The notes under the pieces: generated by a model
What the model saw: the letters and a program-made list of their open reading frames with translations, nothing else
Told to the model about the DNA's origin: nothing
The model's database searches: none
Assembly (NCBI GenBank): GCA_045653035.1
Contig: JAZOLO010000003.1
Coordinates: forward strand, 24,514 to 88,513
From: Eubacteriales bacterium
GTDB lineage: Bacteria > Bacillota > Clostridia > Oscillospirales > SIG627
Length of the DNA: 64,000 bases
Reading direction: 5' to 3'
Shown: positions 3,218-19,604 of the stretch, in pieces
Position numbering within the stretch: the stretch's first letter is position 1
Layout of the letters: the number at the start of each line of letters is the position of its first letter
Program-made: the position numbers and the translations under genes

Positions 3218-3246
3218 ATTATAACGAGGGATTGTCTATTTGTCAA
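3218..3246 (-). promoter_or_regulatory. Consensus sigma-A promoter TTGACA-17-TATAAT for rplM-rpsI
   Basis: The reverse strand reads TTGACAaatagacaatccctcgtTATAAT. The -10 is at 3218-3223 and the -35 at 3241-3246. Confidence 0.75.
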
Positions 3247-3270
3247 CACATTTTTTAAAAGTTTTTAATT

Positions 3271-3320
3271 TATTTTCTCCTATCTCGTTATTTCTCTTGT
3301 TTTCTCGTTTTATCTCGTTT
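3271..3320. repeat. Four to five tandem 10-bp units (TATCTCGTTA / TTTCTCTTGT / TTTCTCGTTT / TATCTCGTTT), helically phased, upstream of the rplM promoter
   Basis: Seen directly. The unit boundaries fall at 3281, 3291, 3301 and 3311, with a degenerate unit at 3271. Confidence 0.6.
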
Positions 3321-3349
3321 TTACTAACTTAAAAAATTACGTTTTTGGA

Positions 3350-3377
3350 TTGACAATCAGGCTTTTTATGGTATAAT
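3350..3377 (+). promoter_or_regulatory. Sigma-A promoter TTGACA-16-TGgTATAAT for ttcA
   Basis: TTGACA at 3350-3355, TATAAT at 3372-3377, with an extended -10 TG. Confidence 0.7.
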
Positions 3378-3397
3378 TCTCATGCGAGGTAAATAAA

Positions 3398-4123: not shown

Positions 4124-4178
4124 ATTAAACGTGGCTTTTTGCATATACTGACATCAATATGATTTTTTGGAGGCTGTC

Positions 4179-4346
4179 ATGGAAGCGAAAAAAAGTAAGA
4201 AAAGCTACAAGAAAATAACCGAGCGTTTTTGCCCTAATCTTGGGGATAACGCAGTTATAATAAAAACTGTAAGCTCTACATGCGAAACATATAGCTGTAT
4301 GTCACAGAGTGAATGTAAAAGTGAAAATTGTATGCATAAAAAATGA
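4179..4346 (+). CDS. Unannotated 55-aa lysine-rich, five-cysteine small protein
   Basis: Below the track cutoff. GGAGG at 4169-4173 lies 5 nt before the ATG. Translation: MEAKKSKKSYKKITERFCPNLGDNAVIIKTVSSTCETYSCMSQSECKSENCMHKK. The TGA stop is embedded in a terminator hairpin. Confidence 0.55.
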   Translation: MEAKKSKKSYKKITERFCPNLGDNAVIIKTVSSTCETYSCMSQSECKSENCMHKK

Positions 4347-4369
4347 AGGCAAAAAGCCTTCATTTTTTT
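4344..4369. terminator. Intrinsic terminator TGAAGGC-AAAAA-GCCTTCA + T7
   Basis: 7-bp GC-containing stem followed by a T-run. It lies between the small ORF (+) and the convergent AI-2E gene (-). Confidence 0.75.
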
Positions 4370-4388
4370 GTATAAAGAAATTTAATTG

Positions 4389-5600
4389 TCAAGCTTCTTT
4401 TTTTGTTTCAGTTTCTTCTATTGCGGGTTCGGGAATAGTGTGAAAATATTCTTCAATTCCTACAGGCATTTTTTTAACCGCAAGACGCCTGTCCACTAGT
4501 CTTTCAACAAGAACGTAGGCTACCGAGAAAATCGGTACGCCGATAATCATTCCTGCAAATCCAAAGAGACCGCTCATTATAACGATTGCGACAAGAATCC
4601 AGAAAGCTGAAAGTCCCATTGAACCGCCGAGGATTTTAGGACCTATGAAATTTCCGTCAAGCTGTTGGATAAGAAGAATTGCAATAAGGAATGGTATTAC
4701 CTCACGGGGGTTTACCATAAGAAGAATAAATGCACTGGGGATTGCACCGATAAACGGTCCGAAAAAAGGAATAATGTTTGTGATACCTACTATAACACTA
4801 ATAAGAAGTGCGTAATCAAGTCTTAGTATCAGCATGACGATATAACAAAGCACTCCTATTATAGCCGAGTCTATAATCTTACCCTTAATGAAGCCACCTA
4901 CCGAATCGTCAAGCAATTCAAAAAAGTCAGATATTCTCTGTACCCATTTTGTATTAAAGAATGCACATATAAGCTTTTTCGACTGCGCCAAAAGATGCTC
5001 CTTACGGGATATCATGTAAATTGATACAAAAATGGAAAGAATAAGATTAACGAATACTACTGATACATCCTTAATGAGAAGTATTGCCTTGGGAACAAGC
5101 TCTGTTATATATTTCACTGCCATGTCCACAAATTCATCAAGTACACTTACAACGCGTTGAACGAGTCCGTAGTATTTGCTCGATGCATCGGGAAGTGAAT
5201 TAGCCCATTTTTCAAGGGCAGCCTGATATGAGGTAAGGTTACTTGCAAACGTTTCAAAGCTTGAATAAAGCTGAGGAATAATTACGTAAAGGAGAGCTGA
5301 AAGAAGAAGCAATGCCAGTACGTAAGCGAGTAAAACAGAAATAAATCTTCTTACTCTTGACATATCCTTCTTTGCTTTTTTGAAAAGAAATACCTTTTTT
5401 TCAAAGAAATTTACAATAGGGTTTATAAGATATGCTATTGCAAAACCTATGATTATAGGATTTATAATAGAAATAAACTTTCCTATTGCCAAAGAAATTG
5501 CTCCTATATTAAAAATAAAATATACTATGAACGCACACACTGTTACGGTAATCGTAGTATATATTGACATAAAGAAATATTTATTAGGCTGTCTTTTCAA
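4389..5600 (-). CDS. AI-2E family transporter (PerM/UPF0118) membrane protein
   Basis: Multi-TM protein with the family-typical ...ITNIIPFFGPFIGAIPSAFILL... and ...IQQLDGNFIGPKILG... segments. It uses a TTG start with GGGAG 7 nt upstream. Confidence 0.8.
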   Translation of the reverse strand: MKRQPNKYFFMSIYTTITVTVCAFIVYFIFNIGAISLAIGKFISIINPIIIGFAIAYLINPIVNFFEKKVFLFKKAKKDMSRVRRFISVLLAYVLALLLLSALLYVIIPQLYSSFETFASNLTSYQAALEKWANSLPDASSKYYGLVQRVVSVLDEFVDMAVKYITELVPKAILLIKDVSVVFVNLILSIFVSIYMISRKEHLLAQSKKLICAFFNTKWVQRISDFFELLDDSVGGFIKGKIIDSAIIGVLCYIVMLILRLDYALLISVIVGITNIIPFFGPFIGAIPSAFILLMVNPREVIPFLIAILLIQQLDGNFIGPKILGGSMGLSAFWILVAIVIMSGLFGFAGMIIGVPIFSVAYVLVERLVDRRLAVKKMPVGIEEYFHTIPEPAIEETETKKEA

Positions 5601-5713
5601 GTTTTCACTCCCTTTTTTTATAATTATAAACGAAAGTTTTTAAAACTGCAATAGTTTTGAAAAAAAATCTGTTTTATTTAAATATAGTTACACTATCCTC
5701 TACAGTAAAAAAA

Positions 5714-5742
5714 GAGTTTTCCTTACGGAAAACTCTTTTTTT
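5714..5742. terminator. Perfect bidirectional terminator A-run GAGTTTTCC-TTAC-GGAAAACTC T-run, ending the 12-kb operon
   Basis: 9-bp perfect stem flanked by A7 and T7. It starts immediately after the stop at 5744. Confidence 0.85.
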
Positions 5743-5743
5743 A

Positions 5744-6772
5744 TTAGCCAACGATACCTGAACGCTCAATACCTTGAATGAGATACTTCTGTAAATAGCT
5801 GTAGAACAGAAGCAAAGGAAGGATAATGAGAAGTCCGCAAGTGTTAGTGATACATGACTCATACAGTGTCTGGGCAGCGAAATCTTCACCTGCAAGGCTT
5901 GAAGGAACCTTTACTATTCGAGGCATGAGTATTGCACCCGACTGTGTAAAGAACAAGTCTGTATAGAAGTTATCTGTCCACTGCCATGAGAACGCAAAGA
6001 GGAAGATTGTTATCATCATGGGAATAGAAATAGGAAGGATAATCTTAACAAAGGTTCCAAATACGTTTTCTCCGTCAATGTACGCTGCTTCTTCAAGCTC
6101 GTCGGGTACGCCCTTAAAGAACTGTCTCATCATGAATATGTAAAGACCGTTCTTAAATGCCATACCGCCTATTGAAAGTATAACCAGAGGCCAGTAGGAG
6201 TTGATAAGGTCGATGGTCGATGCTTCGAGGTTAAACAGCTCTGCAATACCTCCGTATATACCGAAAATATCGAAGAACTTGAAGTTCATGTACATTGAAA
6301 GCTTTACTGTGTCATGAGGAACTATCATAGTAAGGATAACTGCCATGAATACAAGCTTGTTACCACGGAATTTGAACTTTGCAAGACCGTATCCGATGAT
6401 TGAACATATAAGGGTCTGTACGAAAGCACAAAGTGTTGAAAGTACAAATGTGTTGAAGAAAGCAGTGAAGTATTGGTTTTCTCTTATTATGTACTTGTAG
6501 GTATCAAGTGTGGGGTATTTCGGAATAAGTCTAACCGTCGCATCAACAAGGTCGTCACGGCTCATAAATGAACCGAAAATCTTGACAAAGAACGGGAAAA
6601 TAATAATATAAGAAATACCGATGAGAAGAAGGTATCTGAAAATCTTCCAAACTACCTGCACTGCAAAGGACGAAGAAAGATACTTTGCCTTAAATCTCTC
6701 AGCAATACTTGTTCTCTCAAATTCTACTTTAATCTTATTTTTGCTGTTTTTAAGAATCTTAGGTGAATCCAT
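5744..6772 (-). CDS. Carbohydrate ABC transporter permease, MalG-like (pair 2)
   Basis: Contains an EAA-loop segment LEEAAYIDGENVFGTFVKIILPISIPMM and has 6 TM helices. AGGAGG RBS present. Confidence 0.85.
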   Translation of the reverse strand: MDSPKILKNSKNKIKVEFERTSIAERFKAKYLSSSFAVQVVWKIFRYLLLIGISYIIIFPFFVKIFGSFMSRDDLVDATVRLIPKYPTLDTYKYIIRENQYFTAFFNTFVLSTLCAFVQTLICSIIGYGLAKFKFRGNKLVFMAVILTMIVPHDTVKLSMYMNFKFFDIFGIYGGIAELFNLEASTIDLINSYWPLVILSIGGMAFKNGLYIFMMRQFFKGVPDELEEAAYIDGENVFGTFVKIILPISIPMMITIFLFAFSWQWTDNFYTDLFFTQSGAILMPRIVKVPSSLAGEDFAAQTLYESCITNTCGLLIILPLLLFYSYLQKYLIQGIERSGIVG

Positions 6773-6790
6773 TTACTATTTCCTCCTTTC

Positions 6791-7771
6791 TTAGTCTCTT
6801 CTCTGGTAGAATATGTACATTGATAGAAGACCTGCTACAATCGCTATCATTGCAATAACGATGAGGAAGTACATCCAGCTCATTGCTGAGCTTAAAACCT
6901 GTCCGTTTGCTGCTTCTCTGTACACTCTGTCAATATACGTCATTACCTGGTTTGACTCAGATGTAAATGAGTCAATTACAGTATAAATTGTATTTACCAA
7001 AATCATAGGGCTTATCATAGGGAAGGTTATCTTCCAGAATGTTTCCCAAGAGGAGGCACCGTCTATTCGGCATGACTCATAAATTGCGGGGTTGATTGAC
7101 TGAAGACCTGCAAGAAATATAAGCATCTGTACACCTGAACGGTTTACTATGTTATAAATATCGTTTACAAGTCCTGCAACGTAATCAACAAGTCCACGAC
7201 CTACTTTCATGTTAGCAAAGAGCTTTTGTATATCCATTGCGGAGATAATCTCGTTTGCAGTGGTCTGGCTTCCTTCGGCACCTGTTGAGATACCGTCAGA
7301 GGAGCCCATGTAGGTCATCATTGAGTTAGACTGGTCAATTGAATCGATAATACCTGTTGAAAGAATAACGGGGATAAAGAAGATAGCACGGAAAAGTGTT
7401 CTGCCGGGCATCTTATCGTTAAGCATAATCGCCATAAAAAGTGAAAATATAACGATTGCTGGGATATCAAGTACGAGCTGTCTTATACCTGCAACAAGCG
7501 TCGTAACGTAACCAGCATCTTCAAAAAGTGCTTCCTGGAAGTTGTCCCAACCTACGTAAATAAGGTCGTAACCACCCGTTGCCTGAATTTCAAGCTCATG
7601 GAAGCTGAATCTTATTGAGTCGAAAATAATGGGAACATATACTGCTATAAATACTGCTACGAAGGGAAGGACAAACCACCAGCCCGCACGAGCTTTTTTT
7701 CTGTCCAGTGATGCCGGCTTTTTCTTCTTCTTCTTTGCCGGTGCTACTATAACTTTTGCATCTGCGTTCAT
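6791..7771 (-). CDS. Sugar ABC transporter permease, MalF-like (pair 2) with an enlarged extracytoplasmic loop
   Basis: Contains YESCRIDGASSWETFWKITFPMISPM (EAA loop) and a K-rich N-terminus. GGGAGGAG RBS present. Confidence 0.85.
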   Translation of the reverse strand: MNADAKVIVAPAKKKKKKPASLDRKKARAGWWFVLPFVAVFIAVYVPIIFDSIRFSFHELEIQATGGYDLIYVGWDNFQEALFEDAGYVTTLVAGIRQLVLDIPAIVIFSLFMAIMLNDKMPGRTLFRAIFFIPVILSTGIIDSIDQSNSMMTYMGSSDGISTGAEGSQTTANEIISAMDIQKLFANMKVGRGLVDYVAGLVNDIYNIVNRSGVQMLIFLAGLQSINPAIYESCRIDGASSWETFWKITFPMISPMILVNTIYTVIDSFTSESNQVMTYIDRVYREAANGQVLSSAMSWMYFLIVIAMIAIVAGLLSMYIFYQRRD

Positions 7772-7789
7772 TTTATCTCCTCCCTTTCC

Positions 7790-10615
7790 TTATGCTGCTA
7801 CAAACTCGGCAAGTGCTACCACATTGCCGTTTGTAGTTACTGTATCGTTATCAAGGTCAACAGTATACTCTGTATTACCGTTGTTTACTGTTATTGTTGA
7901 AGCATTGTAATCAAGTATAATGATAATTCCGTTGTCGTATGTCATTTCAACGACTCTATCGTTATATGAGTGAGCTGTTACAATAGCATTCTGAACGGGA
8001 CTGAGAACCTTATTTACAAGCTTGTAGGTTTCTACCATATCGTCGTACCAGATATGATATCTGATAGAGTAGTACTTGTTGTATTCTTCGCTTGTCTTAA
8101 GAACGGAAGCGTTCTGATAAGAAAGAAGGAAGTAAAGGCTTGCACCGTTTTCGATAGTCTTCATTATGCTGCTGTTGAAGTCACCTGCAAGGTTGATAGC
8201 AGTTCCCGCAAAGTTCTTGTAGCCGTGGAATACCATACCTACAAAGGGAATTGCCTCGCTTGCAACGTAACGGTTACTACTATCAAGGGGAACGTCAATG
8301 ATATCTGTAGCATATCCAACTACGTATGAGTTTCCTTGATTTACCATGATGCTGTAATCGTCCTTCTGAACCTCAGCAAGAAGCTCAAGTACTCTTTCCT
8401 TGGAGTCCTCACGGTTGAGTGAGTTTTCCTTATTGTGGTCAGAGTTAAGGTCTGAACCGAGTGTACCGAATGAAATGCTCTTTGTGTTGAATTCCTTGAA
8501 ATCATCCTTGAAATATCCGTAGAAGTCACTATACTTCGAAGGAGAAATCATAAGTCTCTTATCGTTGAGGAATGACTGATATACAGGATCGTAAGTTCTG
8601 TGAACAGCTGAACGATTGTCTACAGTCTTAATTGTATCTTCCTTGATATCAAACTTGTCAAATCTTGAGAAGTTTGAGATGTAAACGAAGTCATAATCAG
8701 GGAATACCTTAACGCCGTTATCATTTGCAAATTTTACAAGATCAACAAGACCTTTCTTTCCGCCGATTTCCTTTTCTACCTTAGCTCTTGTGGGAGCTGT
8801 GGAAGCAAGACCTCCGTTTGCCCAACCCGAATACTTAATAGAAATGTTGTCGACGCCGTCTTTCTTGAGGCTTTCGATCATTGTCTTGGCGTTATCGAAG
8901 GTTGTAAGAGGCTTCTTTACGTCTACGGGAACACCGAGAATTCTTTCTGTAGTGTCAATAGCACCGAACGTTTCGATGTAAAGCTCAATGTCTTCTTCTC
9001 TGTCTGTTCTCTTAAGCTGTCCTGTCTTTTCAAGATAGTCACGGTAAATAGCAGCCATGTTAACATAGTTTGCTTCTTCGCCGTCCATCATGATGTACTT
9101 GATTCTGTAGTTGCCTGTGTACTTCTTATCAGTTTCTACAGTCCATGTTGCGGTAAGTCCCGATACCGAGATACCATCAAGAGGATATGTATCCTTGGGT
9201 CTGGGGAAAACGTTGATAGAAGTTGCAAAATACTTATTAAGTATACCGCCAGAGGCTGTGGTTATCTCTGCAAGAGAGTCACCCTCTGTGATTATTGCAA
9301 GGAATCCCTTGGGGTCTGCACCAACTATTTCAACTTCCTGTACAGTGCCATCTTCCAAAGTCACATATTCGTAAGAAACTGTTTTTGTGTTCTCTACCAT
9401 ACCGAAAACGGGGAGAGTCCAATTTTCCATGTTTGCAATAGACTTCTGTGAATAGAAAGAATAGTCCTCGCCGTAAAGTCTGTTGGTAATAGTTGTTGCA
9501 ATATCAGAAGCGCTGTCTTCAAATCTTACAAGAGTACCTGAACCGTCGGGAAGAACAACGTAACCGTTTTCGTTCTGGTTATATGCTCCCATGTAAGGAA
9601 GAATCTTAATATTAGTAAGCGAATACTGCTTTGCATCATAGCGAATACCGCGGGCAGGAAGTCTTACTTCAAGGCCGTCTTCTGTTAAATAATATTCAAG
9701 TGCCATGCGGAATACCGCAGGGTTTTTGGTAGAGCCTGTGTAACCTGTAAGGTCATGGTCGTAAAGAACGTCATCATAAGTATAGTTTGTATACGTTGTG
9801 ATGAAGTTTTCAAACATTTTAAGCTCACGTTCTACTCTTGTAACGGTGGGGTCAATAACGTAAACCGCCATCTGTCTTGTAATAGGAAGTGTGTTGTAAA
9901 GTGTCTGAATTTCGCTTTCTGTAAGACCGGGCTGGGTAGCATCCTTCAACAGATAGTAAGACTTAAATCTGTTATACATATCTGTTTCGCCCGACTCAGC
10001 AAGAGGTGCAAGAACGAATTCTTCAAATCTTGCCTTTTCAATCATCATGGGAAGTGTACGCTTTGTAGTTCCCTGTCCGATTGTATATTCTACTCTTATA
10101 CCACCACGGATTTTGCTCATCTTTATCTGGCTGAGCTCTGCGGCACTTGCATAAGAATTCATCGATTTATCTTCACCAGCGTCGTTATAGTTAACGATTA
10201 TCTGGCTGAGAAGTGCTTTTCTTTCTGTAGCCTTGTTGTCTTTGTTTGAAATGTCATAGGGGTTTGTGGAAAGGTACTGACCTGTAGTGGTGTTCACTAC
10301 CTGTACTTCACCTGTTTCCTTGTGATAGTACAAATCATATCCGAAGTTGGAATAAACAAGCTCCATTGTAGCAAGTTTTTCTTCGTTGGACGAATATTTT
10401 TTGTTTTCATAATCTTCACTGAGTACCGAATTAGTGGTGGTTGTGGTCTCCTTCTCTTCGGTCTCCTCGGTTTCTTCCGTTGTCTCTTCGGTGATTGTCT
10501 CCGCCTCGGGAGTATCAGTCTCGTCTGCGAGAACAGGAAGTGTTACTACTGATGAAAGGGTTGCAAACATCATTATGAATGCAAGCATCATCGCAATGAA
10601 TTTTATATTTTTCAT
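7790..10615 (-). CDS. Large secreted protein of unknown function (~940 aa); from memory resembles DUF5696-type proteins, possible TIM-barrel glycosidase-like core
   Basis: Signal peptide MKNIKFIAMMLAFIMMFATLSSVVTLPVLA/DE, then an acidic Thr/Glu linker. Central segment ...ISIKYSGWANGGLASTAP...VKVFPDYDFVY.... AGGAGG precedes the ATG at 10615; the track start at 10684 is an upstream extension. Confidence 0.6.
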   Translation of the reverse strand: MKNIKFIAMMLAFIMMFATLSSVVTLPVLADETDTPEAETITEETTEETEETEEKETTTTTNSVLSEDYENKKYSSNEEKLATMELVYSNFGYDLYYHKETGEVQVVNTTTGQYLSTNPYDISNKDNKATERKALLSQIIVNYNDAGEDKSMNSYASAAELSQIKMSKIRGGIRVEYTIGQGTTKRTLPMMIEKARFEEFVLAPLAESGETDMYNRFKSYYLLKDATQPGLTESEIQTLYNTLPITRQMAVYVIDPTVTRVERELKMFENFITTYTNYTYDDVLYDHDLTGYTGSTKNPAVFRMALEYYLTEDGLEVRLPARGIRYDAKQYSLTNIKILPYMGAYNQNENGYVVLPDGSGTLVRFEDSASDIATTITNRLYGEDYSFYSQKSIANMENWTLPVFGMVENTKTVSYEYVTLEDGTVQEVEIVGADPKGFLAIITEGDSLAEITTASGGILNKYFATSINVFPRPKDTYPLDGISVSGLTATWTVETDKKYTGNYRIKYIMMDGEEANYVNMAAIYRDYLEKTGQLKRTDREEDIELYIETFGAIDTTERILGVPVDVKKPLTTFDNAKTMIESLKKDGVDNISIKYSGWANGGLASTAPTRAKVEKEIGGKKGLVDLVKFANDNGVKVFPDYDFVYISNFSRFDKFDIKEDTIKTVDNRSAVHRTYDPVYQSFLNDKRLMISPSKYSDFYGYFKDDFKEFNTKSISFGTLGSDLNSDHNKENSLNREDSKERVLELLAEVQKDDYSIMVNQGNSYVVGYATDIIDVPLDSSNRYVASEAIPFVGMVFHGYKNFAGTAINLAGDFNSSIMKTIENGASLYFLLSYQNASVLKTSEEYNKYYSIRYHIWYDDMVETYKLVNKVLSPVQNAIVTAHSYNDRVVEMTYDNGIIIILDYNASTITVNNGNTEYTVDLDNDTVTTNGNVVALAEFVAA

Positions 10616-10634
10616 TTTTATCCTCCTGTTCTTA

Positions 10635-12770
10635 TTATAATCGATACGAAAGCTCGATGTAGACGTTAGAAACGAATGAAACAATCTTTGCTACAAGTCC
10701 TGAGAAGAGTACGCCAAGGAAGATGATTATTGCCATACCAACGATTGTTCCGATACATGTAATAACGTTCTTACCAAGTGCGTAGTCGTGGATAACGCTC
10801 ATTGCAAAGAAGATAAGGAAGCCTGCCCATACAAACCCTATAGAGTTTATAAGTGTTATAACCGCACCTTCTTCAAAAAGAAGAACGTTTGAAATTGCGG
10901 TAGCAGGAATCATCATCATAGGAATGGGAAGCATTGCATAACCCGTTGCCATGAAAATGTCCTTCATGCTGCCTTCACCCTCGAAAAGAGTGGTGAGACA
11001 CCAGTTAGCAATACACCAGAGAATGTAAGGCATGAGAACGCCAAGTGTTTCTCCGATATAGCTGAGACCCTCGGTTTCGGGTGCATGAATGTAAGCTGTA
11101 CCCGAAGAGCTGTAAATAAATCCGATAATAGTAAATACTACTATTGTAAGAGAAGCCTTCATGCTCCCTCGTTTTTCGTGCTTCATATCCCAAAAACCGT
11201 CGAAGGGGTGGAATATGATATGACAAGCATAAAGGAGCGTTTCCTTATAGCTTCTCTTGTCCTTCATTTTCTGTCCTGCAACGTTAACCTTATTTGCATA
11301 TTTGAAGAACTTGCCAACAAGGAAGAAGAATACTATAATTACAAGAGGAACAACGAGAATCCAGTCACTCATCCAAGCCTTTCTTATCTGTTTGAATGAG
11401 TTGGAATATTTTTCAACAGCGTGTGCATACTTGTACATTTCCATTGCTTCGTCATATCTGCCCTGACGGAAGTAGCTGTCGCCGATTCCGATATATGCCA
11501 TGTCAAAGTTGGAGTTACGCTGAAGAATTGCTTCCCAGTAAACAACTGCCTGGTCGTACTTTCTGTCTTCGGTGTTACGAAGAGCTTCAACAAGGAGGTC
11601 GCCGTATTCTGTTCTCTTGTAAGTAGTGATGGTATCGTTAGACTTATCAAGGATTACAAGCTCGTCACCCTTGTATGCGATACACTGAATGTTAGCTATG
11701 TTACCAAGCTGTGAGCCCTTATCGCCGAATATGTAAAGAAGCTTACCATCTTGGTCGTATGTAAATACCTTACTTCTCTTTTCGTCAATTATAGACCACA
11801 TTCCTGCAGGGCCGAGTGCTACGTCGATAATTTTGGAGGGACCTATAATGTTATACCCTTCCATTTCGTTCATCTGAACCATAACTTCACCAGAAGGAGG
11901 ATAGAAGCCGTTACGGTTCATAACGTCCTGTCCGGAGGGGTTAAGCTTCTTAACGGGAGCATAGTCTGCAGATTTATCCTTGTTGTCTATTGCATTTTGC
12001 TGTGAGGTTGAATCGATAGTGGATGTTGTAACGTAGATAAATCCTACGTCATCAATTGTAAGGTTGTTATACTCTGTAGGAACATACTGTGTGCTCTGTG
12101 CTCTCTGTGCCTTTGTTTGGAATTTTCTCCAAAATATATCAAGAGCAGAGGGAGTTGTCTTCTGAGCACCAAGGAATCCGAGGAACGAACCGTCAGAATT
12201 CATTGAAATTACACCGTAGGTTGTAGTTGAAGATACTACGTAAATTCTTCCCGCAGTATCAACTGCAACTGCTACAGGTGTGTAAATATGTCCTTCAGGA
12301 AATACGTCACTTTCCGGTTCGGGGATTATTCTCTTGAAAGCACCGTCTTCTCTGTTGAAAACAACTATTCTGTGGTTCTGTGAGTCTGCAACGTAAATTT
12401 CGATTTCGTTTACAAACACGCCCTCTGGAGCAGAGAGTGTATCGTATACACCATGCTCGTTATAAAAGGCAGAAATACCGAACTGTGTTTCCCAATTCTC
12501 GTTTACAACGATTACTCGGTTATTTTTTGTGTCAACGATGTAAACCATTTCGTGAGAATCCACGAAAATGTCCTTGGGGCTGTTGAGCTTCGTTTCGAGA
12601 GTAAGATCATCTGAATCGATGAGTCTGTCGGGAACGTAAGCATCTGGAGAAAGAGCCATAAAGCCATCAATGTCATAAGTGTAGGTCGCATAGGGCACCG
12701 CAGCAAAAATGCTAGGTGCTACCATCAAGGCAACAAGGAGGGCTAAAAGAATAACTCTGAGTTTTTTCAT
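10635..12770 (-). CDS. Exported NHL-type six-bladed beta-propeller + TPR + C-terminal Yip1-like polytopic membrane domain fusion protein (711 aa)
   Basis: Signal peptide MKKLRVILLALLVALMVAPSIFA. Six blade-like repeats, for example SPKDIFVDSHEMVYIVDTKNNRVIVVN and APEGVFVNEIEIYVADSQNHRIVVFN. TPR-like segment YDQAVVYWEAILQRNSNFDMAYIGIGDSYFRQGRYDEAMEMYKYA. About 6 TM helices in the last ~230 aa. Confidence 0.65.
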   Translation of the reverse strand: MKKLRVILLALLVALMVAPSIFAAVPYATYTYDIDGFMALSPDAYVPDRLIDSDDLTLETKLNSPKDIFVDSHEMVYIVDTKNNRVIVVNENWETQFGISAFYNEHGVYDTLSAPEGVFVNEIEIYVADSQNHRIVVFNREDGAFKRIIPEPESDVFPEGHIYTPVAVAVDTAGRIYVVSSTTTYGVISMNSDGSFLGFLGAQKTTPSALDIFWRKFQTKAQRAQSTQYVPTEYNNLTIDDVGFIYVTTSTIDSTSQQNAIDNKDKSADYAPVKKLNPSGQDVMNRNGFYPPSGEVMVQMNEMEGYNIIGPSKIIDVALGPAGMWSIIDEKRSKVFTYDQDGKLLYIFGDKGSQLGNIANIQCIAYKGDELVILDKSNDTITTYKRTEYGDLLVEALRNTEDRKYDQAVVYWEAILQRNSNFDMAYIGIGDSYFRQGRYDEAMEMYKYAHAVEKYSNSFKQIRKAWMSDWILVVPLVIIVFFFLVGKFFKYANKVNVAGQKMKDKRSYKETLLYACHIIFHPFDGFWDMKHEKRGSMKASLTIVVFTIIGFIYSSSGTAYIHAPETEGLSYIGETLGVLMPYILWCIANWCLTTLFEGEGSMKDIFMATGYAMLPIPMMMIPATAISNVLLFEEGAVITLINSIGFVWAGFLIFFAMSVIHDYALGKNVITCIGTIVGMAIIIFLGVLFSGLVAKIVSFVSNVYIELSYRL

Positions 12771-12784
12771 TTTCTTTACCTCCT

Positions 12785-13657
12785 TTAGTCCTTCATACCG
12801 GACGATGACATCGTCTCAATAACGTTACTCTGTGAAACCACGAATACTGTGATAGGCACTACCATCATAACAACGGTAGATGCAGCGGAAGCACCTGCTC
12901 GGGCAATACCACCTGTTACTATCTGGCTTATCGCATAGGGGAAGGTTTTAAGTTCTTCACTAAATACGTAAACCGACGCACCTTGATTCCAAAGTCCCTG
13001 GAAGGAGAATATAATAAGTGTGAGCCAAGCAGGCTTAACCATGGGCATTACCAGCGTCCAGAGAATGTGCCATTCGGAAGCACCGTCAAGACGGGCTGAT
13101 TCAAGAACTGAATCGGGAACGGAGGTTTCCATGAACTGCTTCATAAGGTAAAGACCCATTGTTGAACCCATAGCGGGAACGATAATTGCGAAATATGTAT
13201 CCACCCATCCGAGCGCTGACATAGTAATAAAGTTTGTAATACCCGCAACTGTTGTGTTGAACATGAGTGAATACACGATTACGTTGAAAAGGAACTTTCT
13301 TCCTGGGAATTTAATTTTAGCAAGCGAATAGGCTGCGAAGGAAGAAAGCATAACGTTACCGAACGTACCAAGTGTAGAGATGAATACCGTATTGAAAATG
13401 TATCTTGAGAAAGGAACCCAAGATGTTGACATCAGTTGGAAAAGGTCGGTAAAGTTTTTCATTGTGGGGTTAACTACGTATAGTCTGGGGGGGAACATCC
13501 ACAACTCGTTCAAGGGCTTGAGAGCCTGTACTATTGTGTAGTACATAGGGAAGAACATGAACACACCAAAGGCAAGCAATACGCCGTTGATGCTGAGGTC
13601 TCCTGCGAAAGAACGGTTGAGAGCATGATTATGTTTTTTAATTCTAAGCTTTGCCAT
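12785..13657 (-). CDS. Carbohydrate ABC transporter permease, MalG-like (pair 1)
   Basis: Contains LESARLDGASEWHILWTLVMPMVKPA (EAA loop) and has 6 TM helices. Confidence 0.88.
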   Translation of the reverse strand: MAKLRIKKHNHALNRSFAGDLSINGVLLAFGVFMFFPMYYTIVQALKPLNELWMFPPRLYVVNPTMKNFTDLFQLMSTSWVPFSRYIFNTVFISTLGTFGNVMLSSFAAYSLAKIKFPGRKFLFNVIVYSLMFNTTVAGITNFITMSALGWVDTYFAIIVPAMGSTMGLYLMKQFMETSVPDSVLESARLDGASEWHILWTLVMPMVKPAWLTLIIFSFQGLWNQGASVYVFSEELKTFPYAISQIVTGGIARAGASAASTVVMMVVPITVFVVSQSNVIETMSSSGMKD

Positions 13658-13658
13658 A

Positions 13659-14615
13659 CTACTGACCTACCTTCGACAAAAGTTTTTTAATTACCATGTT
13701 ACTTCCTATCATCATGAAGAAGAGGACTGTCGCGATTGCAGATGCATATCCCATTTCAAATCGCTGTCCGCCGTAGTCGTCAAGATGATGCATGATAGTG
13801 TGTGCAGAATACTCAGGGCTGGGGAAGCCTACGAGTGCCGTAATAATGCTTCCGAAGCCAAAGGATGAGGTTATAGACATAACTGCACCGAACATCATCT
13901 GAGGCTTCATTGAAGGAAGTGTTATAGACCACAGCTCCTGCCATCTGTTCTTGATACCGTCCATTGCACCCGCTTCATAAAGGCTTCTATCCACTATCTG
14001 GAAACCTGCAATAAAGGAAAGGAAAGAAGTACCAAGGCTCGTCCACAAAGCTACTATAATTACAAGAGGCATTATGTAGCTTGTGTTAGTAAAGAACTGA
14101 ATGGGTGAACTGATAATACCTGTATTTATGAGAAACGCGTTTACAAGACCGTACTGGTCACCTGAAAACAGCGTTGTCCAGATAAGATATACGTTACCTG
14201 AAATAGAGGGAGCATAGAATATAAGGGTTACCAGAGCTCTCATTTTAGGAGAGAGCTCATTGATAAACCACGCAAACAGAAGTGATAAAAGATAGGAAAC
14301 AGGTCCTGTGATTGCTGCGAATATCAGAGTGTTTTTAAGAGCAAGGAGGAAGATATCGTCATCAAGGAAGAGTCTTACGTAGTTGTCCATAAAAACGAAA
14401 TCGGGAAATTCCAGCATGTTAAAGTTCGTTAAACTGATTATAACCGATAATATAACGGGAGCAACCGTAAATACTAAAAAGATAAGATAGAAGGGAGCAA
14501 GAAGCAGGTATGCCACGTAGTTCTTCTTCATCTCATTCCACGTGTACTGAGCCTTTGTCATTTCGTGAACCGAAACTGGCTTTTTCTTGGCAACCGCCGC
14601 TTTTGTATTAGCCAT
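13659..14615 (-). CDS. Sugar ABC transporter permease, MalF-like (pair 1)
   Basis: Contains YEAGAMDGIKNRWQELWSITLPSMKP (EAA loop). There is a 1-nt gap to the next gene. Confidence 0.88.
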   Translation of the reverse strand: MANTKAAVAKKKPVSVHEMTKAQYTWNEMKKNYVAYLLLAPFYLIFLVFTVAPVILSVIISLTNFNMLEFPDFVFMDNYVRLFLDDDIFLLALKNTLIFAAITGPVSYLLSLLFAWFINELSPKMRALVTLIFYAPSISGNVYLIWTTLFSGDQYGLVNAFLINTGIISSPIQFFTNTSYIMPLVIIVALWTSLGTSFLSFIAGFQIVDRSLYEAGAMDGIKNRWQELWSITLPSMKPQMMFGAVMSITSSFGFGSIITALVGFPSPEYSAHTIMHHLDDYGGQRFEMGYASAIATVLFFMMIGSNMVIKKLLSKVGQ

Positions 14616-14656
14616 TGATTTTTCTCCTTTTTAAGTTTTCTTACTGCGGCAGTTCT

Positions 14657-17600
14657 TTAAGACTTTTTGAAGTCTTCAAGTGTCGGCAGATCAAATTCTT
14701 CGCGTTTTCTGGAAAGCTCTGCATTGATTACGTCGATATAGCTGAGCATTTCTTCAACAGGGTTTGCATCGTCGTTGTACGCTGCAAGGAACGCAAAGTT
14801 TACGTAACGGGTTATGATATAACCACCAGGCATTTCGGGAGTTACGGCAAGGTTATCAAACTGGTCGCGAAGTGCTGCAAGAACCTCCGGTGACCAAGGC
14901 TGATTTTCGAGAGCAGCAAGGTTTGCTGTTGCATACTGTCCTGAAGGACCGAGAAGGGTTACAAGCTCGTTACCGTAAGTGGTTTGTGCGTATTCGTCTG
15001 TCCACCACTTCATAAACTTCCATGCTCTTTCCTCGTCGCCCTGTGCACCTCTCATCATCATTACACAGGTTATAGTGGAAACAGAATTGTAGTTGATGCT
15101 TTCTATTTCCTTTTCACCAGTTTCAAGGTTATAAATTATATCTCCATTTTCATCGGTCTTATATGTTGCTGTGCCGGGAAGACGCGTTATCTTCCAAAGA
15201 CCACTGATTTCCGGAGCGAATATTTGGAGCTGGTTGTATGATGTATATGCAGTTACCGCAATAGGCATTTCTCCTGATCTGAAGCGGTTTGCAAAGTCAA
15301 AGGTCAAGGGGAAAGAGTACATGGTAAAGTACTCGCAAACCTCCTTGAAGCAGTCAAGTGCTGTATTGGAGTCGAGGTTTATCTGCATACCGCGTGTAAG
15401 ATATGCGTCTTCTGCGTCAAACCCTGCCGCTACAACCTCCTCTTCACTGAGTGCATCCTTGTACATAGGCTCGTCTCTCTGATACATGAGCATAGTGGCA
15501 CCGGCTAGGTTAGATGGGAAGCCTGCCTGAAGGTTGTTGGACTGGAGTATGGGAAGAATTCCGTAAAGGTCGTCCCAAGTCTTGGGAATCTTCATATCAA
15601 GCTCTGCGAACACATCAAGTCTTACGAAAAGCATGTTAAATGTTTCCGTTTCGGGAAGTCCATAAACCTCACCGTAAAGAGTGAGAGGAATCATTGCGGT
15701 ATCACTGAATCTCTCTTTTACTTCGTCCATTCCCTCCATATTTGTTATGGGAAGAACTGCGCTTCTGATAGCATAGTTGATACATGTATCAGCAGTATTC
15801 TGAATCGAAACGTCAGGACCTGTTCCTGCAAGAGTTGCGGGAAGTAGTGAACCTGCCGCAACAAGCTTTAAGTTAACGGGAACGCCGTATTCGGCAGTAA
15901 AGTCAGTAAGCATTGAACGGATGATCTGTGCTTGGTCACGACCTGCTGTCATCCAAACCTGAAGGGGATCTTCGTTGTCCTCTGACTGATCCATTGCCCC
16001 AAGATTATTGTAATCGCTGATAAAGCTCATTACGAAAGATGAAAGCTCATATTTAAGAGCAGCAAAGAAACCAGCGTTTGCGGTTGGAAGCTCCTTGTTG
16101 TCAGCGGGCTGAACCTGAATGTAGTCGAGAAGGAGGGGCTGTGAACGAGCTGTCTGAATCCATGTACCAAGTGAACCAATGTTGTCTTTCAAGGTTCCGA
16201 GGTTAGGAGCTACATCGTCGTCATCGGATCCCATTAGGTCAAGAATAAGAGCAATCTTATCAAGAAGAACTGAATCTTCACCCTTCTGACCTGTTATTAT
16301 TTCAAGTCTCTTCGATATATCGGTAAGGCGTTTGCCTTCTTCTACAAGACCGTTCATGACGTCTGGCATAAGAGCTGTAAATCCGTAGTCGCGATAGATA
16401 TCGGGGTTGGGACCGGTAACCATTATAATTTTAAGGTAGTAATTATTGATGTTTACCATGCACTCATCAACTTCACGAAGTATTTCAGCCATATCGCCAA
16501 GAACTACTTCAAGTCTCACAATGTGCTTACCCTTTGTAAGATAGAAGCTAAAGGGATCAATAACTGTTTTACCTTTCTTATCTTGTGAATCAATTCCAAG
16601 GAATTGTGTCTGCCATGATGAGTCGTAGTTAAACGAAATATCATTTGCTTCAGCGAAAGGTACTTTTCCGTCTATGTAAATTCTACGTGAAACAAACATA
16701 CCTGCAAGTGTGTCCTGCTTGAAGCGCGTTGCTATATTGTAAAGTCCGTCTTCGGGAACTTCGATTTCCCACTCAATCCACTGACCATTGGACTGCCACT
16801 TTGTTCCACCTATAGTATTAAGGAAAACTTTAGAAGCGTTCTGGGGTTCGTTTGATGCTGATGTTCTGTCTGTAATTGCATAGATTGACTGGTCAGAGGT
16901 ACGGAAGGCGTGTTCCGCCTGATACTTTACAGGCTTTACTGAGGAAGGTGCTTTATAGCCCTTGTCCGCATATTCCTTCTCAACCTCAGGATAAGATGCC
17001 TGACCTTCACTGAAATATACTCTGACAGATTTTATAATCATGCCTTCTTTGATACCATTTATGGTAACTGTGTGTTCGCCCTGTCCGAGATAGTACTTAA
17101 GAGGCTCTGAATAGTAACCTGTTGTGTCATAAACGAAACGCTTTGACCAAGTGGGACGAGCCGCTTTTGCCGGTTTTATTTCATTGCCGTTGATATCGTG
17201 AAGAAATCCGCGGTCAAATCTTGTGTCGTATTCATCAACCCATGTTCCTACGAAAGAGATAGACCTTGTCTCTGAATAAGGATATGCACCGTCAACCATT
17301 ATTGCACGTTCAATGTTATTTGAACTTGCGGAAGCAGCCATATACTCTACCTCAAAGTTATAAAACCCTTCTGTTTCGATGTTAAAGCCAAACGTAAGTT
17401 CAGACGATGCGGTCGTAAGTAAAACTCCCTCAACATCCTCCATTCCGGCTTTTGCATCTGAAATAAGCTCTTCAAGGTATTTTTCGTTGTATTTATTGTG
17501 CTCTTCTGTCTTATCTGCCACGTTAGGTGTCATCTTATCGGTAATTTCAAGTTGAGCTGAATACTTAACTGTAAGCTCATCGGCGAGCTCCTCAGCATTA

Positions 17601-17890
17601 AGAATTCTTACGTCGTCCGTGGTTTTATCAGCAACCACGTCTATATATGTAAGGCGCTTAACATCCTTACCATTCTGAGGTACCTCCACATCGTTAAGGT
17701 ACTCCTGATAGCTCAACGCAGAAAGCAGAGCCTTAACCTCTGCCAGCTCTTCCTCGGGAGACTTATCGCCTGTATCGACAGGCAACGTTCCAGCATAGGA
17801 CTCAGCAAGTGCAGCTGTGCCAAGCTGTGTGGCAAGCATCACTATAACCAAGAGAGCTGCAAGGGATCTTGAAAAAGGTGATCTAAACAT
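14657..17890 (-). CDS. Giant (1077 aa) extracellular solute-binding protein: signal peptide, two tandem CBM-like beta-sandwich modules, C-terminal family-1 sugar-binding domain
   Basis: Signal MFRSPFSRSLAALLVIVMLATQLGTAALA/ES has no lipobox Cys. There is an internal duplication (…FGFNIETEGFYNFEVEY…IMVDG…YYLGQGEHTVTI… versus …WIEWEIEVPEDGLYNIATRF…IYIDG…FYLTKGKHIVRL…). The last ~450 aa look like a CUT1 binding protein. AGGAGG RBS present. Confidence 0.7.
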   Translation of the reverse strand: MFRSPFSRSLAALLVIVMLATQLGTAALAESYAGTLPVDTGDKSPEEELAEVKALLSALSYQEYLNDVEVPQNGKDVKRLTYIDVVADKTTDDVRILNAEELADELTVKYSAQLEITDKMTPNVADKTEEHNKYNEKYLEELISDAKAGMEDVEGVLLTTASSELTFGFNIETEGFYNFEVEYMAASASSNNIERAIMVDGAYPYSETRSISFVGTWVDEYDTRFDRGFLHDINGNEIKPAKAARPTWSKRFVYDTTGYYSEPLKYYLGQGEHTVTINGIKEGMIIKSVRVYFSEGQASYPEVEKEYADKGYKAPSSVKPVKYQAEHAFRTSDQSIYAITDRTSASNEPQNASKVFLNTIGGTKWQSNGQWIEWEIEVPEDGLYNIATRFKQDTLAGMFVSRRIYIDGKVPFAEANDISFNYDSSWQTQFLGIDSQDKKGKTVIDPFSFYLTKGKHIVRLEVVLGDMAEILREVDECMVNINNYYLKIIMVTGPNPDIYRDYGFTALMPDVMNGLVEEGKRLTDISKRLEIITGQKGEDSVLLDKIALILDLMGSDDDDVAPNLGTLKDNIGSLGTWIQTARSQPLLLDYIQVQPADNKELPTANAGFFAALKYELSSFVMSFISDYNNLGAMDQSEDNEDPLQVWMTAGRDQAQIIRSMLTDFTAEYGVPVNLKLVAAGSLLPATLAGTGPDVSIQNTADTCINYAIRSAVLPITNMEGMDEVKERFSDTAMIPLTLYGEVYGLPETETFNMLFVRLDVFAELDMKIPKTWDDLYGILPILQSNNLQAGFPSNLAGATMLMYQRDEPMYKDALSEEEVVAAGFDAEDAYLTRGMQINLDSNTALDCFKEVCEYFTMYSFPLTFDFANRFRSGEMPIAVTAYTSYNQLQIFAPEISGLWKITRLPGTATYKTDENGDIIYNLETGEKEIESINYNSVSTITCVMMMRGAQGDEERAWKFMKWWTDEYAQTTYGNELVTLLGPSGQYATANLAALENQPWSPEVLAALRDQFDNLAVTPEMPGGYIITRYVNFAFLAAYNDDANPVEEMLSYIDVINAELSRKREEFDLPTLEDFKKS

Positions 17891-18076
17891 TACTTTTCCT
17901 CCTGAAAGTTTTGGGTTGAATTACTCTAACACTGTCCGAAATTATTTACGACGTGTTAGACACACATCGTCAAAAACGGTCAAAATAGCTGATTTAAAGC
18001 ACTATTTCAGGCTAAATTTGACACACAGATTTTTAACTGTTCACAAAATAGCCCAGTTTGAGTATTTTACTAGGTA

Positions 18077-18105
18077 AGTATATCATCAACACCTGATTTT
18101 GTCAA
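18077..18105 (-). promoter_or_regulatory. Sigma-A promoter TTGACA-17-TATACT for the 12-kb operon, leaving a ~180-nt leader
   Basis: The reverse strand reads TTGACAaaatcaggtgttgatgaTATACT. The -10 is at 18077-18082 and the -35 at 18100-18105. Confidence 0.6.
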
Positions 18106-18158
18106 GTATGACCATATTTAGTTGCTCTATTATATATATATTAACAGTATTTTACATA

Positions 18159-18173
18159 TTAACAAATTGTTAA
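18159..18173. promoter_or_regulatory. Perfect palindrome TTAACAA-A-TTGTTAA upstream of the operon promoter; candidate regulator site
   Basis: Seen directly. Additional TTAACA half-sites lie at about 18141 and 18445. Confidence 0.3.
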
Positions 18174-18263
18174 CAACGCACGTTCGAGGAAGTTAAAATA
18201 TAAATTTTATAAAAGTGCACAAAAATTAATATAATAATATATCATACTATTTTTAATACCAAG

Positions 18264-18300
18264 AAAACCCCCGATTTTTAGGGGGGTTTTTAGCTTTTTT
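18264..18300. terminator. Orphan GC-rich hairpin AAAACCCCC-N8-GGGGGGTTTT + T-rich tail in a gene-free AT-rich region
   Basis: C5/G5-6 stem flanked by A and T runs. The T-tail TTTTTAGCTTTTTTT is stronger on the plus strand. No annotated gene ends here. Confidence 0.55.
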
Positions 18301-18549
18301 TACTTTGTAATTTATAACTATTATATCTTTTATTCACAACTTTTTATTTTATTATAGTTTATATTTATATTTTAAACACACAATAAATTATTATATACTG
18401 CCAAATATGTTTGTGAAAATCAATACAATGTATTTGTTCAACATTAACAATTTATCTTTTTTAGTTTCGTCATTTAAGATATCAAATATTTTCAAATTGC
18501 TTCAAAAAAACAACCAAAAACAGACATAAAAATGGAAAATAATATAAAT

Positions 18550-18570
18550 ATATGACATTTTTTGTCATAT
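18550..18570 (-). terminator. AT-rich hairpin ATATGACA-N5-TGTCATAT at the mnmA stop, followed by a U-rich tract on the minus strand
   Basis: 8-bp perfect stem overlapping the stop codon. Weak, all-AT-rich stem. Confidence 0.4.
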
Positions 18571-19604
18571 TACACAATATATCCCCCAAACAACACTCTT
18601 CCCTCTTCGTCGTAAAACACTGCCGACTGTCCTGAAGACGGTTTTTTGATGAGAATGCTTGGTATAACCTCCGCGTACTCATCAGAAACATTCACCTTAC
18701 ATGGAATAAGTGGCGAACGATAGCGTGGGCGAAGAAAACACGACACCTCGCCACGTGTTTCCTTTATTCCGACAAAGTTTAAAGAGCGTATTTTGAAGAA
18801 AGCGGAACTGTTATCTTCCTCATACCCTAGTACTACCTCGTTTGTTTCGGGTCGTATTTCGGTAACATAAACAGGTCTGCCAAGTGCTATCCCCAGTCCC
18901 TTGCGTTGACCTACAGTGTACGCGGCAATACCGTTATGAACGCCGAGCACCTTTCCGTCAAGATTCACAAAATTTCCTTTTGTAAAAGCTCTTTCCAATC
19001 CTTCTTCATCAAGATTTTCTTTAAGATATGATATATAATCATCATTTGGAATAAAACATATTTCCTGACTTTCGCAAATCTCTTCCACAAGTGCCGATTC
19101 TTTTACATTTGTTATAACCTCACTTTTAAGTGCACTCCCGAGAGGTGCTATAAATCTGGAAAGTTGCTCTTGCGAAAGTTGCCACAAGAAGTAGCTCTGG
19201 TCCTTCTTCGTATCCTCTGCCGACACCAAAGTAAAGCGGTCGCGATACTTTTCTACCTTTACGTAGTGACCCGTAGCAATTAAGTTTATTCCAAGCGAGT
19301 CTGCAACACGAACAAGGCTATGAAATTTTATTTTTCTGTTGCAAACCACACAGGGATTAGGCGTTCTGCCTGAAACGTATTCGTTTACAAAGTAGTCCTC
19401 TACTTCCCTTTTAAAGTTTTCACTATAATCCGCCACATGCAGCTTTATACCGAGCTTTTCTGCTGCCGACTTCGCCTTTTCAAGTGGGGCCGTCGGATGA
19501 AGCACAAGTACTACACCTTCTACCTCATAGCCTTTTTCCTGTAAAACCCGACATGCCCAAGTGCTGTCAATCCCGCCTGACATTCCAAGGAGTACCTTTT
19601 CCAT
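18570..19604 (-). CDS. mnmA: tRNA 2-thiouridine(34) synthase
   Basis: N-terminal PP-loop LLGMSGGIDSTWA, plus ...TPNPCVVCNRKIKF... and ...DQSYFLW.... Confidence 0.93.
   Translation of the reverse strand: MEKVLLGMSGGIDSTWACRVLQEKGYEVEGVVLVLHPTAPLEKAKSAAEKLGIKLHVADYSENFKREVEDYFVNEYVSGRTPNPCVVCNRKIKFHSLVRVADSLGINLIATGHYVKVEKYRDRFTLVSAEDTKKDQSYFLWQLSQEQLSRFIAPLGSALKSEVITNVKESALVEEICESQEICFIPNDDYISYLKENLDEEGLERAFTKGNFVNLDGKVLGVHNGIAAYTVGQRKGLGIALGRPVYVTEIRPETNEVVLGYEEDNSSAFFKIRSLNFVGIKETRGEVSCFLRPRYRSPLIPCKVNVSDEYAEVIPSILIKKPSSGQSAVFYDEEGRVLFGGYIV

Follow-up and report, generated by a model that had tools for sequence, protein, structure and literature searches.

An NHL propeller, TPR and Yip1 membrane protein encoded between two MalFG-type permease pairs in uncultured Clostridia

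The 64,000 bp of Eubacteriales bacterium DNA analysed here (contig JAZOLO010000003.1 of assembly GCA_045653035.1, positions 24,514 to 88,513; hereafter "the window") contain a cluster of seven genes on the minus strand, the fourth of which (10635..12770, a single open reading frame, or ORF) encodes a 711 amino acid (aa) protein with an exported NHL β-propeller, TPR motifs and a Yip1-like membrane domain. It lies between two pairs of ATP-binding cassette (ABC) transporter permease genes, and the question it raises is what such a protein contributes to a transporter. ABC importers are the main route of complex-carbohydrate uptake in gut Firmicutes, and what they comprise beyond the solute-binding protein (SBP), the permeases and the ATPase is generally assumed to be known. 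We find that the NHL-TPR-transmembrane (TM) part, the Yip1 part and the adjacent protein of the DUF5696 family are encoded alongside two pairs of permeases and a giant binding protein, as undescribed parts of what is probably a carbohydrate-capture machinery. The parts are all of known kinds (NHL, TPR, Yip1, MalFG-type permeases, an SBP and a GH129-like fold), and it is the accessory set that is conserved and undescribed. No papers on this module, on the function of this architecture, or on Yip1 proteins in sugar uptake or polysaccharide utilisation were found in the literature covered, outside which most subscription journals lie.

Conservation of the gene, its neighbours and its split relatives

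A word-indexed search with the 711 aa protein returned more than 3795 homologues, of which the best 120 are all about 705–732 aa long with the same domains. An exhaustive search of 1.84 billion cluster representatives (50% identity) gave 1453 that match it at E ≤ 1e-30; the best 150 of these are nearly all full length, down to 31% identity. The homologues carry the automatic NCBI name "YIP1 family protein", and those fused homologues that have an organism name, both in these search results and among the GTDB loci, all come from uncultured Clostridia, Oscillospiraceae or Eubacteriales genomes. Longer members of the family (757–1123 aa) have no extra known domain according to Pfam. One of them, the 1123 aa protein P0391 (10001–13372 of locus L032), has an in-frame N-terminal extension of two ~190 aa repeats followed by a segment that resembles a signal peptide. 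The extension may be genuine, the gene having joined an upstream one for a secreted protein, or it may result from a stop codon missing in the assembly; if it is genuine, the topology of the protein would be odd. A link between this extension and the giant SBP was considered and rejected, as it does not resemble the N-terminal region of that protein.

Gene order was tallied at 114 loci (25 species genomes, 80 metagenome contigs and 9 exact look-ups) by tblastn with the seven window proteins; some of these loci are duplicates, and the counts given here are not independent. The contigs are from human-gut, termite-gut, ruminant, bioreactor and fermentation samples and were scanned with a smaller alignment of homologues (A4), the wide alignment (A3) being too divergent for this use. 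The DUF5696 gene is the next gene downstream in 98 of the 99 loci where this could be assessed, and directly upstream lies the gene for permease A2 in 93 of 96 loci. The full order of giant SBP, permease pair A, NHL-Yip1 protein, DUF5696 protein and permease pair B is present in 45 of 47 loci, and the synteny is uniform down to 31–33% identity. All-versus-all clustering of the ORFs in the 25 genome loci found no further conserved neighbours beyond these seven genes. We note that a recurrent upstream gene pair in three loci resembles SufC/SufD by eye. Among the rearranged loci, L031 has pair B and a lipoprotein SBP moved upstream, and the reduced locus L032 retains only the genes for the NHL-Yip1 protein, the DUF5696 protein and permease pair B, a set that fits an NHL-Yip1 protein working with pair B and the large secreted neighbour. 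The tally shows that DUF5696 and permease pair B are the partners to which the NHL-TPR-TM/Yip1 unit is most closely linked. The association spans more than 1000 sequence clusters from human-, ruminant- and termite-gut and bioreactor metagenomes and from cultured Paenibacillus, and the module occurs in very many Gram-positive bacteria of gut and soil.

Walking out from a distant DUF5696 protein led to genomes of Paenibacillus, Cohnella, Gorillibacterium and Anaerotaenia and to metagenome-assembled genomes of Tyzzerella and Acetatifactor. In five loci the same module has the two halves of the protein as separate genes: one in the complete genome of the cultured Paenibacillus amylolyticus (CP107037.1, about 2.153–2.176 Mb; L115), one in an assembly of Anaerotaenia torta and three on metagenome contigs, one of them Acetatifactor-like. 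The genes are ordered giant SBP, permease A1, permease A2, NHL protein, Yip1 protein, DUF5696 protein, permease B1 and permease B2, except that L118 begins too near the end of its contig to show the giant SBP. Small SBP genes follow pair B in three of the five (L116, L117 and L119), and P. amylolyticus has instead a small lipoprotein SBP upstream of the giant one. The first split gene encodes 486–501 aa comprising a signal peptide, the propeller, the TPR motifs and one C-terminal TM helix, and the second encodes 204–213 aa that begin just ahead of an FHPFDGFW motif and match Pfam Yip1. The two ORFs overlap by 8–22 nt in four of the loci, and in L119 a gap of 1 nt lies between them. Their products align to aa 19–501 and 499–710 of the window protein with 31–44% identity, the separate Yip1 proteins aligning from aa 499–510 onward.

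Because the same module has the NHL-TPR-TM and Yip1 parts as separate genes elsewhere, the window protein is, on this comparison of sequences, a gene fusion of two partners, joined at about aa 500–507 in the predicted cytoplasmic loop past the first TM helix. By "Rosetta-stone" reasoning, the pattern of fused and split genes suggests that the two proteins act as a complex where they are separate. The initial annotation of this gene had named, as findings that would speak against it, a strain-specific fusion with separate genes in all relatives and no linkage to transporters. Separate genes were indeed found, in the five loci above; otherwise the fused form extends across a very large Clostridia clade, and the linkage to a transporter is always present. 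With 1453 matching clusters and the neighbour counts given above the fusion is old and widespread and not an accident of one strain, and the linkage to the 941 aa neighbour that was proposed at the same time is borne out as well. The split genes in the complete P. amylolyticus genome make the function of the pair a question open to genetics.

Domains of the 711 aa protein

The ORF has a GGAGG Shine-Dalgarno sequence, starts 14 nt past the upstream permease gene and is separated by 19 nt from the gene downstream. An AlphaFold2 model of the protein, built from 50 homologues (mean predicted local distance difference test score, pLDDT, 83; predicted template-modelling score, pTM, 0.68), has a helix at aa 2–21, strands in groups of four from aa 29 to 386, five helices between aa 388 and 469, a long helix at aa 473–501, two short amphipathic helices and then five long helices across aa 537–710. 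Taken with the profile matches described below, the predicted architecture runs from a signal peptide through a six-bladed NHL propeller and two TPR motifs to one TM helix and a five-helix Yip1 domain. The signal peptide (aa 1–23, 12702..12770; this and the following segments are all on the minus strand) has the sequence MKKLRVILLALLVALMVAPSIFA, with AVPY following the cleavage site predicted after I-F-A. Its positive n-region, hydrophobic core and cleavage site were read from the sequence and the pattern is kept in orthologues, all of which agrees with the earlier view of an exported propeller with a cleavable-looking signal peptide.

The propeller occupies aa 29–386 (11613..12686) and is supported by the model, by Foldseek and by invariant alignment columns. 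The Pfam NHL profile reaches 35.2 bits (cut-off 20), with one repeat alone passing individually, and a phmmer search of the PDB matches aa 60–205 to the NHL domains of Pizza6, TRIM71, Brat, Thin and PknD, with a lowest E of 1e-18. Foldseek aligns 330–360 columns of the model with complete six-bladed NHL domains at target-normalised TM-scores of 0.72–0.77, and six four-stranded blades that close the ring are thereby confirmed in the predicted structure. The NHL assignment made by eye thus stands. Among proteins with such domains, PknD of Mycobacterium tuberculosis likewise has an extracytoplasmic six-bladed NHL propeller tethered by one TM helix; in PknD the propeller is coupled to a cytoplasmic kinase, whereas here it leads to TPR motifs and a Yip1 bundle. 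TRIM71, Brat and Thin have the same six-bladed propeller, but TRIM-NHL proteins bind RNA in the cytosol. Two conserved inserts of the model, aa 196–236 and 272–310, were predicted with low confidence and are absent from PknD and from the eukaryotic NHL domains. The highest conservation in the whole propeller falls within them, at aa 196–236 and 272–296.

Propellers of this general shape include enzymes, and the domain could in principle be a lactonase, lyase or esterase of the SMP-30/gluconolactonase–strictosidine synthase type that acts on a glycan outside the cell. One homologue is named "sugar lactone lactonase YvrE" by one source, some homologues give weak or borderline matches to Pfam SGL, Arylesterase, Phytase-like and SSL_N, and virginiamycin B lyase is found among the Foldseek matches at ranks 41–50. 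The window protein itself, however, has no match to SGL (PF08450) in Pfam, and its best structural matches are non-enzymatic NHL domains. In alignment A3 the propeller residues conserved at 90% or more are the Asp, Gly and Pro of the NHL repeat together with aromatic residues, and no conserved Glu/Asn/His set of the SGL metal-binding kind is seen. We therefore regard a catalytic propeller as highly improbable.

The TPR region, aa 388–469 (11364..11609), was recognised from Pfam TPR_1 and TPR_16, from matches to consensus-TPR proteins in the PDB (lowest E 2.9e-17) and from the model helices. TPR_1 is marginal at 28.7 bits against a cut-off of 27.8 and covers aa 425–450; TPR_16 covers aa 403–449 and, like TPR_2 and TPR_19, scores under its cut-off. 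The initial annotation had seen two TPR-like helices here; the TPR character stands and the number does not, as the five predicted helices form two TPR motifs and a capping helix. The putative membrane anchor of the ectodomain, TM helix 1, follows at aa 470–501 (11268..11363; hydropathic segment 464–492, model helix 473–501), and in the split-gene lineages the separate NHL protein ends with it.

Beyond it lies a predicted cytoplasmic linker, aa 502–536 (11163..11267), with the invariant motif FHPFDGFWD..E.RG. Because the loop past TM helix 1 is rich in basic residues (11 Lys/Arg against 5 Asp/Glu), hydropathy and charge together predict that the propeller and TPR ectodomain is outside the cell and the HPFDGFWD motif is in the cytoplasm. 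The remainder, aa 537–711 (10638..11162), is the five-helix Yip1 bundle. Pfam Yip1 (PF04893) matches aa 518–685 over positions 3–170 of its 173 (E 5e-14; 52.9 bits, cut-off 28.6), and the predicted membrane helices are 473–501, 537–557, 571–596, 602–626, 632–661 and 665–710, in agreement with the roughly six C-terminal TM helices and the likeness to Yip1 noted at the outset. This region matches no PDB sequence, even at E 10. Three strongly conserved motifs of the Yip1 part, FHPFDGFWD..E.RG, NW..TTL.(D/E)GEG and H.Y..KN, face the cytoplasm in the predicted topology. Eukaryotic Yip1/YIPF proteins of the Golgi belong to the same Pfam family and share the five-helix core, but they are related to Rab proteins and vesicle trafficking and have neither an ectodomain nor an ABC transporter context.

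The gene cluster and its possible role in glycan import

The seven genes of the cluster are separated by gaps of only 1–41 nt, and six of them, that of the NHL-Yip1 protein included, have a clear GGAGG-type ribosome-binding site; the earlier description of this gene as co-translated with the permeases is corrected to co-transcribed. A promoter-like sequence, TTGACA-17-TATACT with a TG extension, lies upstream of the first gene (18077..18105, minus strand; a pattern match from a consensus scan), and a bidirectional terminator-like hairpin at 18268–18285 parts the cluster from mnmA. Gene 1 (14657..17890) encodes the giant SBP of 1077 aa. Genes 2 and 3 encode permeases A1 (13659..14615, MalF/UgpA-like, 59–77% identical in distant loci) and A2 (12785..13657, MalG/UgpE-like), and downstream of the NHL-Yip1 gene are gene 5 for the DUF5696 protein (7790..10615, start ATG at 10615) and genes 6 and 7 for permeases B1 (6791..7771, MalF-like, with a long extracellular insert) and B2 (5744..6772, MalG-like), assigned by Pfam, NCBIfam and synteny. 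The two flanking permease pairs of the initial annotation are thus MalF/MalG-type (BPD_transp_1) pairs by Pfam and NCBIfam.

All four permeases keep the EAA loop, which couples a permease to its ATPase, and the module probably works as an importer. There is no transporter ATPase gene in the cluster or among the window ORFs that were scanned. An ABC_tran protein at 21393–23276 was considered for this part and rejected, since it has the ABC-F domain set (ABC_tran_Xtn and ABC_tran_CTD), which we take to mark a non-transporter ATPase. Firmicutes sugar importers commonly share one MsmX/MsmK ATPase, so a locus of this kind without an ATPase gene is usual. In its MalF/MalG-like pairs with EAA loops, its sugar-binding protein and its lack of an ATPase gene the module resembles the CUT1 importers (the MalEFGK2 paradigm) of Gram-positive polysaccharide utilisation loci (gpPULs), and in relatives carbohydrate-active enzymes (CAZymes) and AraC, LacI or histidine kinase–response regulator genes are found near it, as in those loci. 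It differs from them in having two permease pairs per operon, a binding protein of 950–1250 aa that mostly lacks a lipid anchor, and three extra conserved proteins (NHL-TPR-TM, Yip1 and DUF5696) that are foreign to the described importers.

The DUF5696 protein (941 aa, Pfam E 4e-160) begins with a hydrophobic helix and a disordered acidic linker rich in Thr and Glu, which a well-predicted body follows. Its AlphaFold2 model (pLDDT 84, pTM 0.80) consists of a β-sandwich, a TIM-barrel and a second β-sandwich, and Foldseek matches it to the glycoside hydrolases (GH) ZgGH129 (E 5e-26) and NagBb (TM-score 0.72) and further to GH101, a Flavonifractor plautii galactosaminidase, GH36 and GH31. The single sequence has no match in the PDB, and a profile of the family gives a weak one to NagBb (E 7e-4) over ~130 residues around the first barrel strands. 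Four residues, D357, D384, D726 and N808, are the same in all of 45 DUF5696 sequences that range from the window clade to Paenibacillus, and E822 is nearly invariant; position 786 is Asp in 37 of them and Ser, then Glu, in the window clade. D726 and position 786 are the candidate nucleophile and acid/base. The predicted fold is GH129/GH101-like. GH129 (the NagBb α-N-acetylgalactosaminidase and the ZgGH129 3,6-anhydro-D-galactosidase) and GH101 enzymes have the same overall three-domain fold (target-normalised TM-scores 0.65–0.72), but the identity is ~12% and DUF5696 has an extra N-terminal domain of ~250 aa. No papers on DUF5696 or PF18952 were found within the same literature coverage.

In the giant SBP an SBP_bac_8 domain (aa 660–973) lies within the C-terminal 400 residues, and the N-terminal extension of ~650 aa has only weak CBM35/Golvesin_C-like matches. 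A PDB phmmer search with the protein finds maltose- and sugar-binding proteins. Its signal peptide lacks a lipobox Cys in the window, as in most lineages, whereas a canonical lipobox is present in each small SBP encoded next to the module. In many lineages the giant SBP has the motif hydrophobic-x-x-x-S-Y-x-x-Y-L just past the signal peptide.

The module is flanked in relatives by GH43, elsewhere by GH10, GH43, an esterase and an SBP that bears a CBM9 carbohydrate-binding module, in another locus by GH130 and GH42 with a histidine kinase and AraC-type response regulator pair, and in others by GH16, GH18, a LacI regulator, or a ricin-lectin protein and AraC regulators. These are typical gpPULs and appear to differ in specificity. 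A gpPUL has been defined by a transport system, a polysaccharide-degrading enzyme and a transcriptional regulator (PMC5320581). Measured against that definition, the window locus has the transport system (two CUT1-type permease pairs and an SBP) and no regulator; as for the enzyme, it offers the DUF5696 protein with its GH129/GH101-like predicted fold and invariant Asp residues, classical GH genes being found beside the module in other lineages only. No transcriptional regulator gene lies inside or adjoining the window cluster, the nearest AraC-type gene (1334–2221) being two unrelated genes away.

The variety of these loci bears directly on whether the NHL propeller is a tethered glycan receptor that binds oligo- or polysaccharide and passes it to pair B, in place of an SBP or in addition to one. 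In the window clade no ordinary SBP is encoded in cis with pair B, no SBP is recognisable near the reduced L032 locus, β-propellers can bind sugars, and the ectodomain is tethered in the membrane next to the permeases. Against this, most other lineages also have one or two canonical lipoprotein SBPs by pair B, and a propeller family common to loci with very different CAZymes is unlike a specific receptor. The fold, moreover, is unlike that of any known ABC substrate-binding protein by Foldseek, and neither an SBP profile nor a two-lobed binding-protein fold was found in the 711 aa protein by Pfam, NCBIfam, AlphaFold2 or Foldseek. The SBPs beside pair B and the varied CAZyme sets argue, though not strictly, against the protein as the sole receptor of pair B, and we consider the receptor role unlikely.

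The same lack of a local regulator could be taken to mean that the protein itself is a regulatory sensor, in which the propeller would sense a ligand, as has been proposed for the NHL domain of PknD, and the Yip1 part would gate or tune the transporter. The match to the PknD sensor domain (1rwi, phmmer E 2.5e-9) is in keeping with this, and the conserved cytoplasmic-face motifs could contact the ATPase or the coupling helices of the permeases. A recognisable output domain is absent, however, relatives already have histidine kinase/AraC response regulator, LacI or sensor-SBP sets beside the module, and a sensor leaves the strict adjacency to DUF5696 unexplained; such a role seems to us quite improbable.

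The surroundings in the window suggest a further reading, that the module remodels a glycan of the cell's own envelope and is not concerned with nutrients, the NHL-Yip1 protein positioning the hydrolase on the wall. The cluster of the window and its close relatives has no regulator and no other CAZyme, and is set among housekeeping genes (mnmA, RNase H, mnmG/mnmE/yidC, groEL and proS across the window and close relatives). But distant lineages embed the module in inducible loci for plant or host glycans with GH10, GH43, GH130, GH16, GH18 and sugar regulators, and MalFG-type permeases with SBPs import external solutes, so that we give envelope recycling very little weight. A possible ranking of these alternatives by plausibility puts the glycan receptor first and the regulatory role second, ahead of the enzymatic and envelope-recycling roles.

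The reading we favour, whose chances we would rate as about even, is that the NHL-TPR-TM/Yip1 unit serves a glycan ABC importer as an accessory or organising subunit whatever the substrate, with Yip1 as an adaptor at the permeases and the ectodomain as a docking platform for the DUF5696 protein. The Yip1 bundle would lie beside the permeases in the membrane, and the propeller and TPR motifs would keep the DUF5696 enzyme, together perhaps with the giant SBP that has no lipid anchor, close to the entrance of the transporter. Release of oligosaccharides and their capture would in this way take place beside the permeases, and an ATPase supplied in trans would serve both MalFG-type pairs. From the arrangement of the genes and domains we infer physical contact between the parts, the docking role and the direction of transport. 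Substrate independence is favoured because the same family of ectodomains accompanies differing CAZyme sets. Docking is favoured because TPR is a protein-binding module and because the best-conserved propeller segments are the low-confidence inserts of a monomer model, as expected of loops that bind a partner; a tether may be needed because the giant SBP mostly has no lipobox while the small SBPs have one.

The closest functional precedent for the Yip1 half is YknW, a polytopic Yip1-family protein encoded in an ABC transporter operon and the one bacterial Yip1 protein described in the literature covered, and it is because YknW associates with its transporter and modulates the assembly of the latter that an adaptor role is favoured here. 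YknW is a subunit of the Bacillus subtilis YknWXYZ exporter, which is of the MacB type with a membrane-fusion protein and protects against the SDP toxin (PMC4887032, PMC4338810). The statement of the initial annotation that Yip1 proteins have no established function in bacteria overlooked these studies. YknW has no ectodomain and serves an exporter, in contrast to the window protein with its MalFG-type permeases, SBP and glycosidase-like neighbour, and Pfam and NCBIfam find no membrane-fusion protein or MacB in the cluster. The module is not a strict YknW-type system, because the class of the partner transporter differs.

Several points weigh against the organiser reading. The precedent itself comes from a MacB-type exporter, a different class from the MalFG-type importer proposed here, and we know of no Yip1 protein that works with a MalFG-type importer. 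Some lineages have the DUF5696 protein as a lipoprotein and others do not, and where it is one no anchor would be needed. A single contig, L055, ends the operon after the NHL-Yip1 gene (2021–4186), with convergent unrelated genes next and with neither DUF5696 nor permease pair B beyond it. The conserved cytoplasmic-face motifs HPFDGFWD, NW..TTL.DGEG and H.Y..KN hint at more than passive anchoring, the propeller may bind glycan itself, and the window cluster has no regulator and lies among housekeeping genes.

If the accessory role is true, the unit would represent a class of accessory subunit new to importers, bacterial Yip1 proteins would gain a second transporter partner unrelated to the first, and the DUF5696 family would receive its first context. 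A wider version of it is that the NHL-TPR-TM/Yip1 pair organises a surface "utilisome" in single-membrane bacteria, in which Yip1 bridges the two ABC importers and the propeller and TPR motifs dock the GH129-like enzyme and the non-lipidated giant SBP, bacterial Yip1 proteins being general ABC assembly adaptors for importers as well as for YknXYZ; this we hold to be doubtful. In Bacteroidota the SusCD "utilisome" is a stable surface assembly of a glycosidase and glycan-binding proteins atop a transporter. The analogy would be functional only, since the SusCD assembly is not homologous, belongs to the outer membrane of diderms and is TonB-dependent, and the assembly proposed here is hypothetical.

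Other features of the window

The AI-2E transporter gene downstream of the cluster (4389–5600) was considered as a further member of the module and rejected, as it is present in close relatives only and at variable distance. The 143 nt gap between it and permease B2 (5601–5743) contains no terminator-like site that we could find, and the AI-2E gene may be co-transcribed with the cluster in this genome. An Rfam search of window positions 4000–19000 returned nothing. Upstream of the cluster, rsmG, mnmG, mnmE, jag and yidC form a run on the minus strand at 23996–30051, an arrangement that is typical beside a chromosomal replication origin. Further along, a minus strand ORF at 31042–32997 encodes 651 aa with no Pfam family at E ≤ 1e-5, and an unusually long BPD_transp_1 permease of 463 aa, unrelated to the sugar cluster, is encoded at 49691–51082 (minus strand). 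Just downstream of dnaG are two adjacent full-length genes for primary-type sigma-70 factors with regions 1.1 to 4, at 33812–34954 and 34992–36116 on the minus strand.

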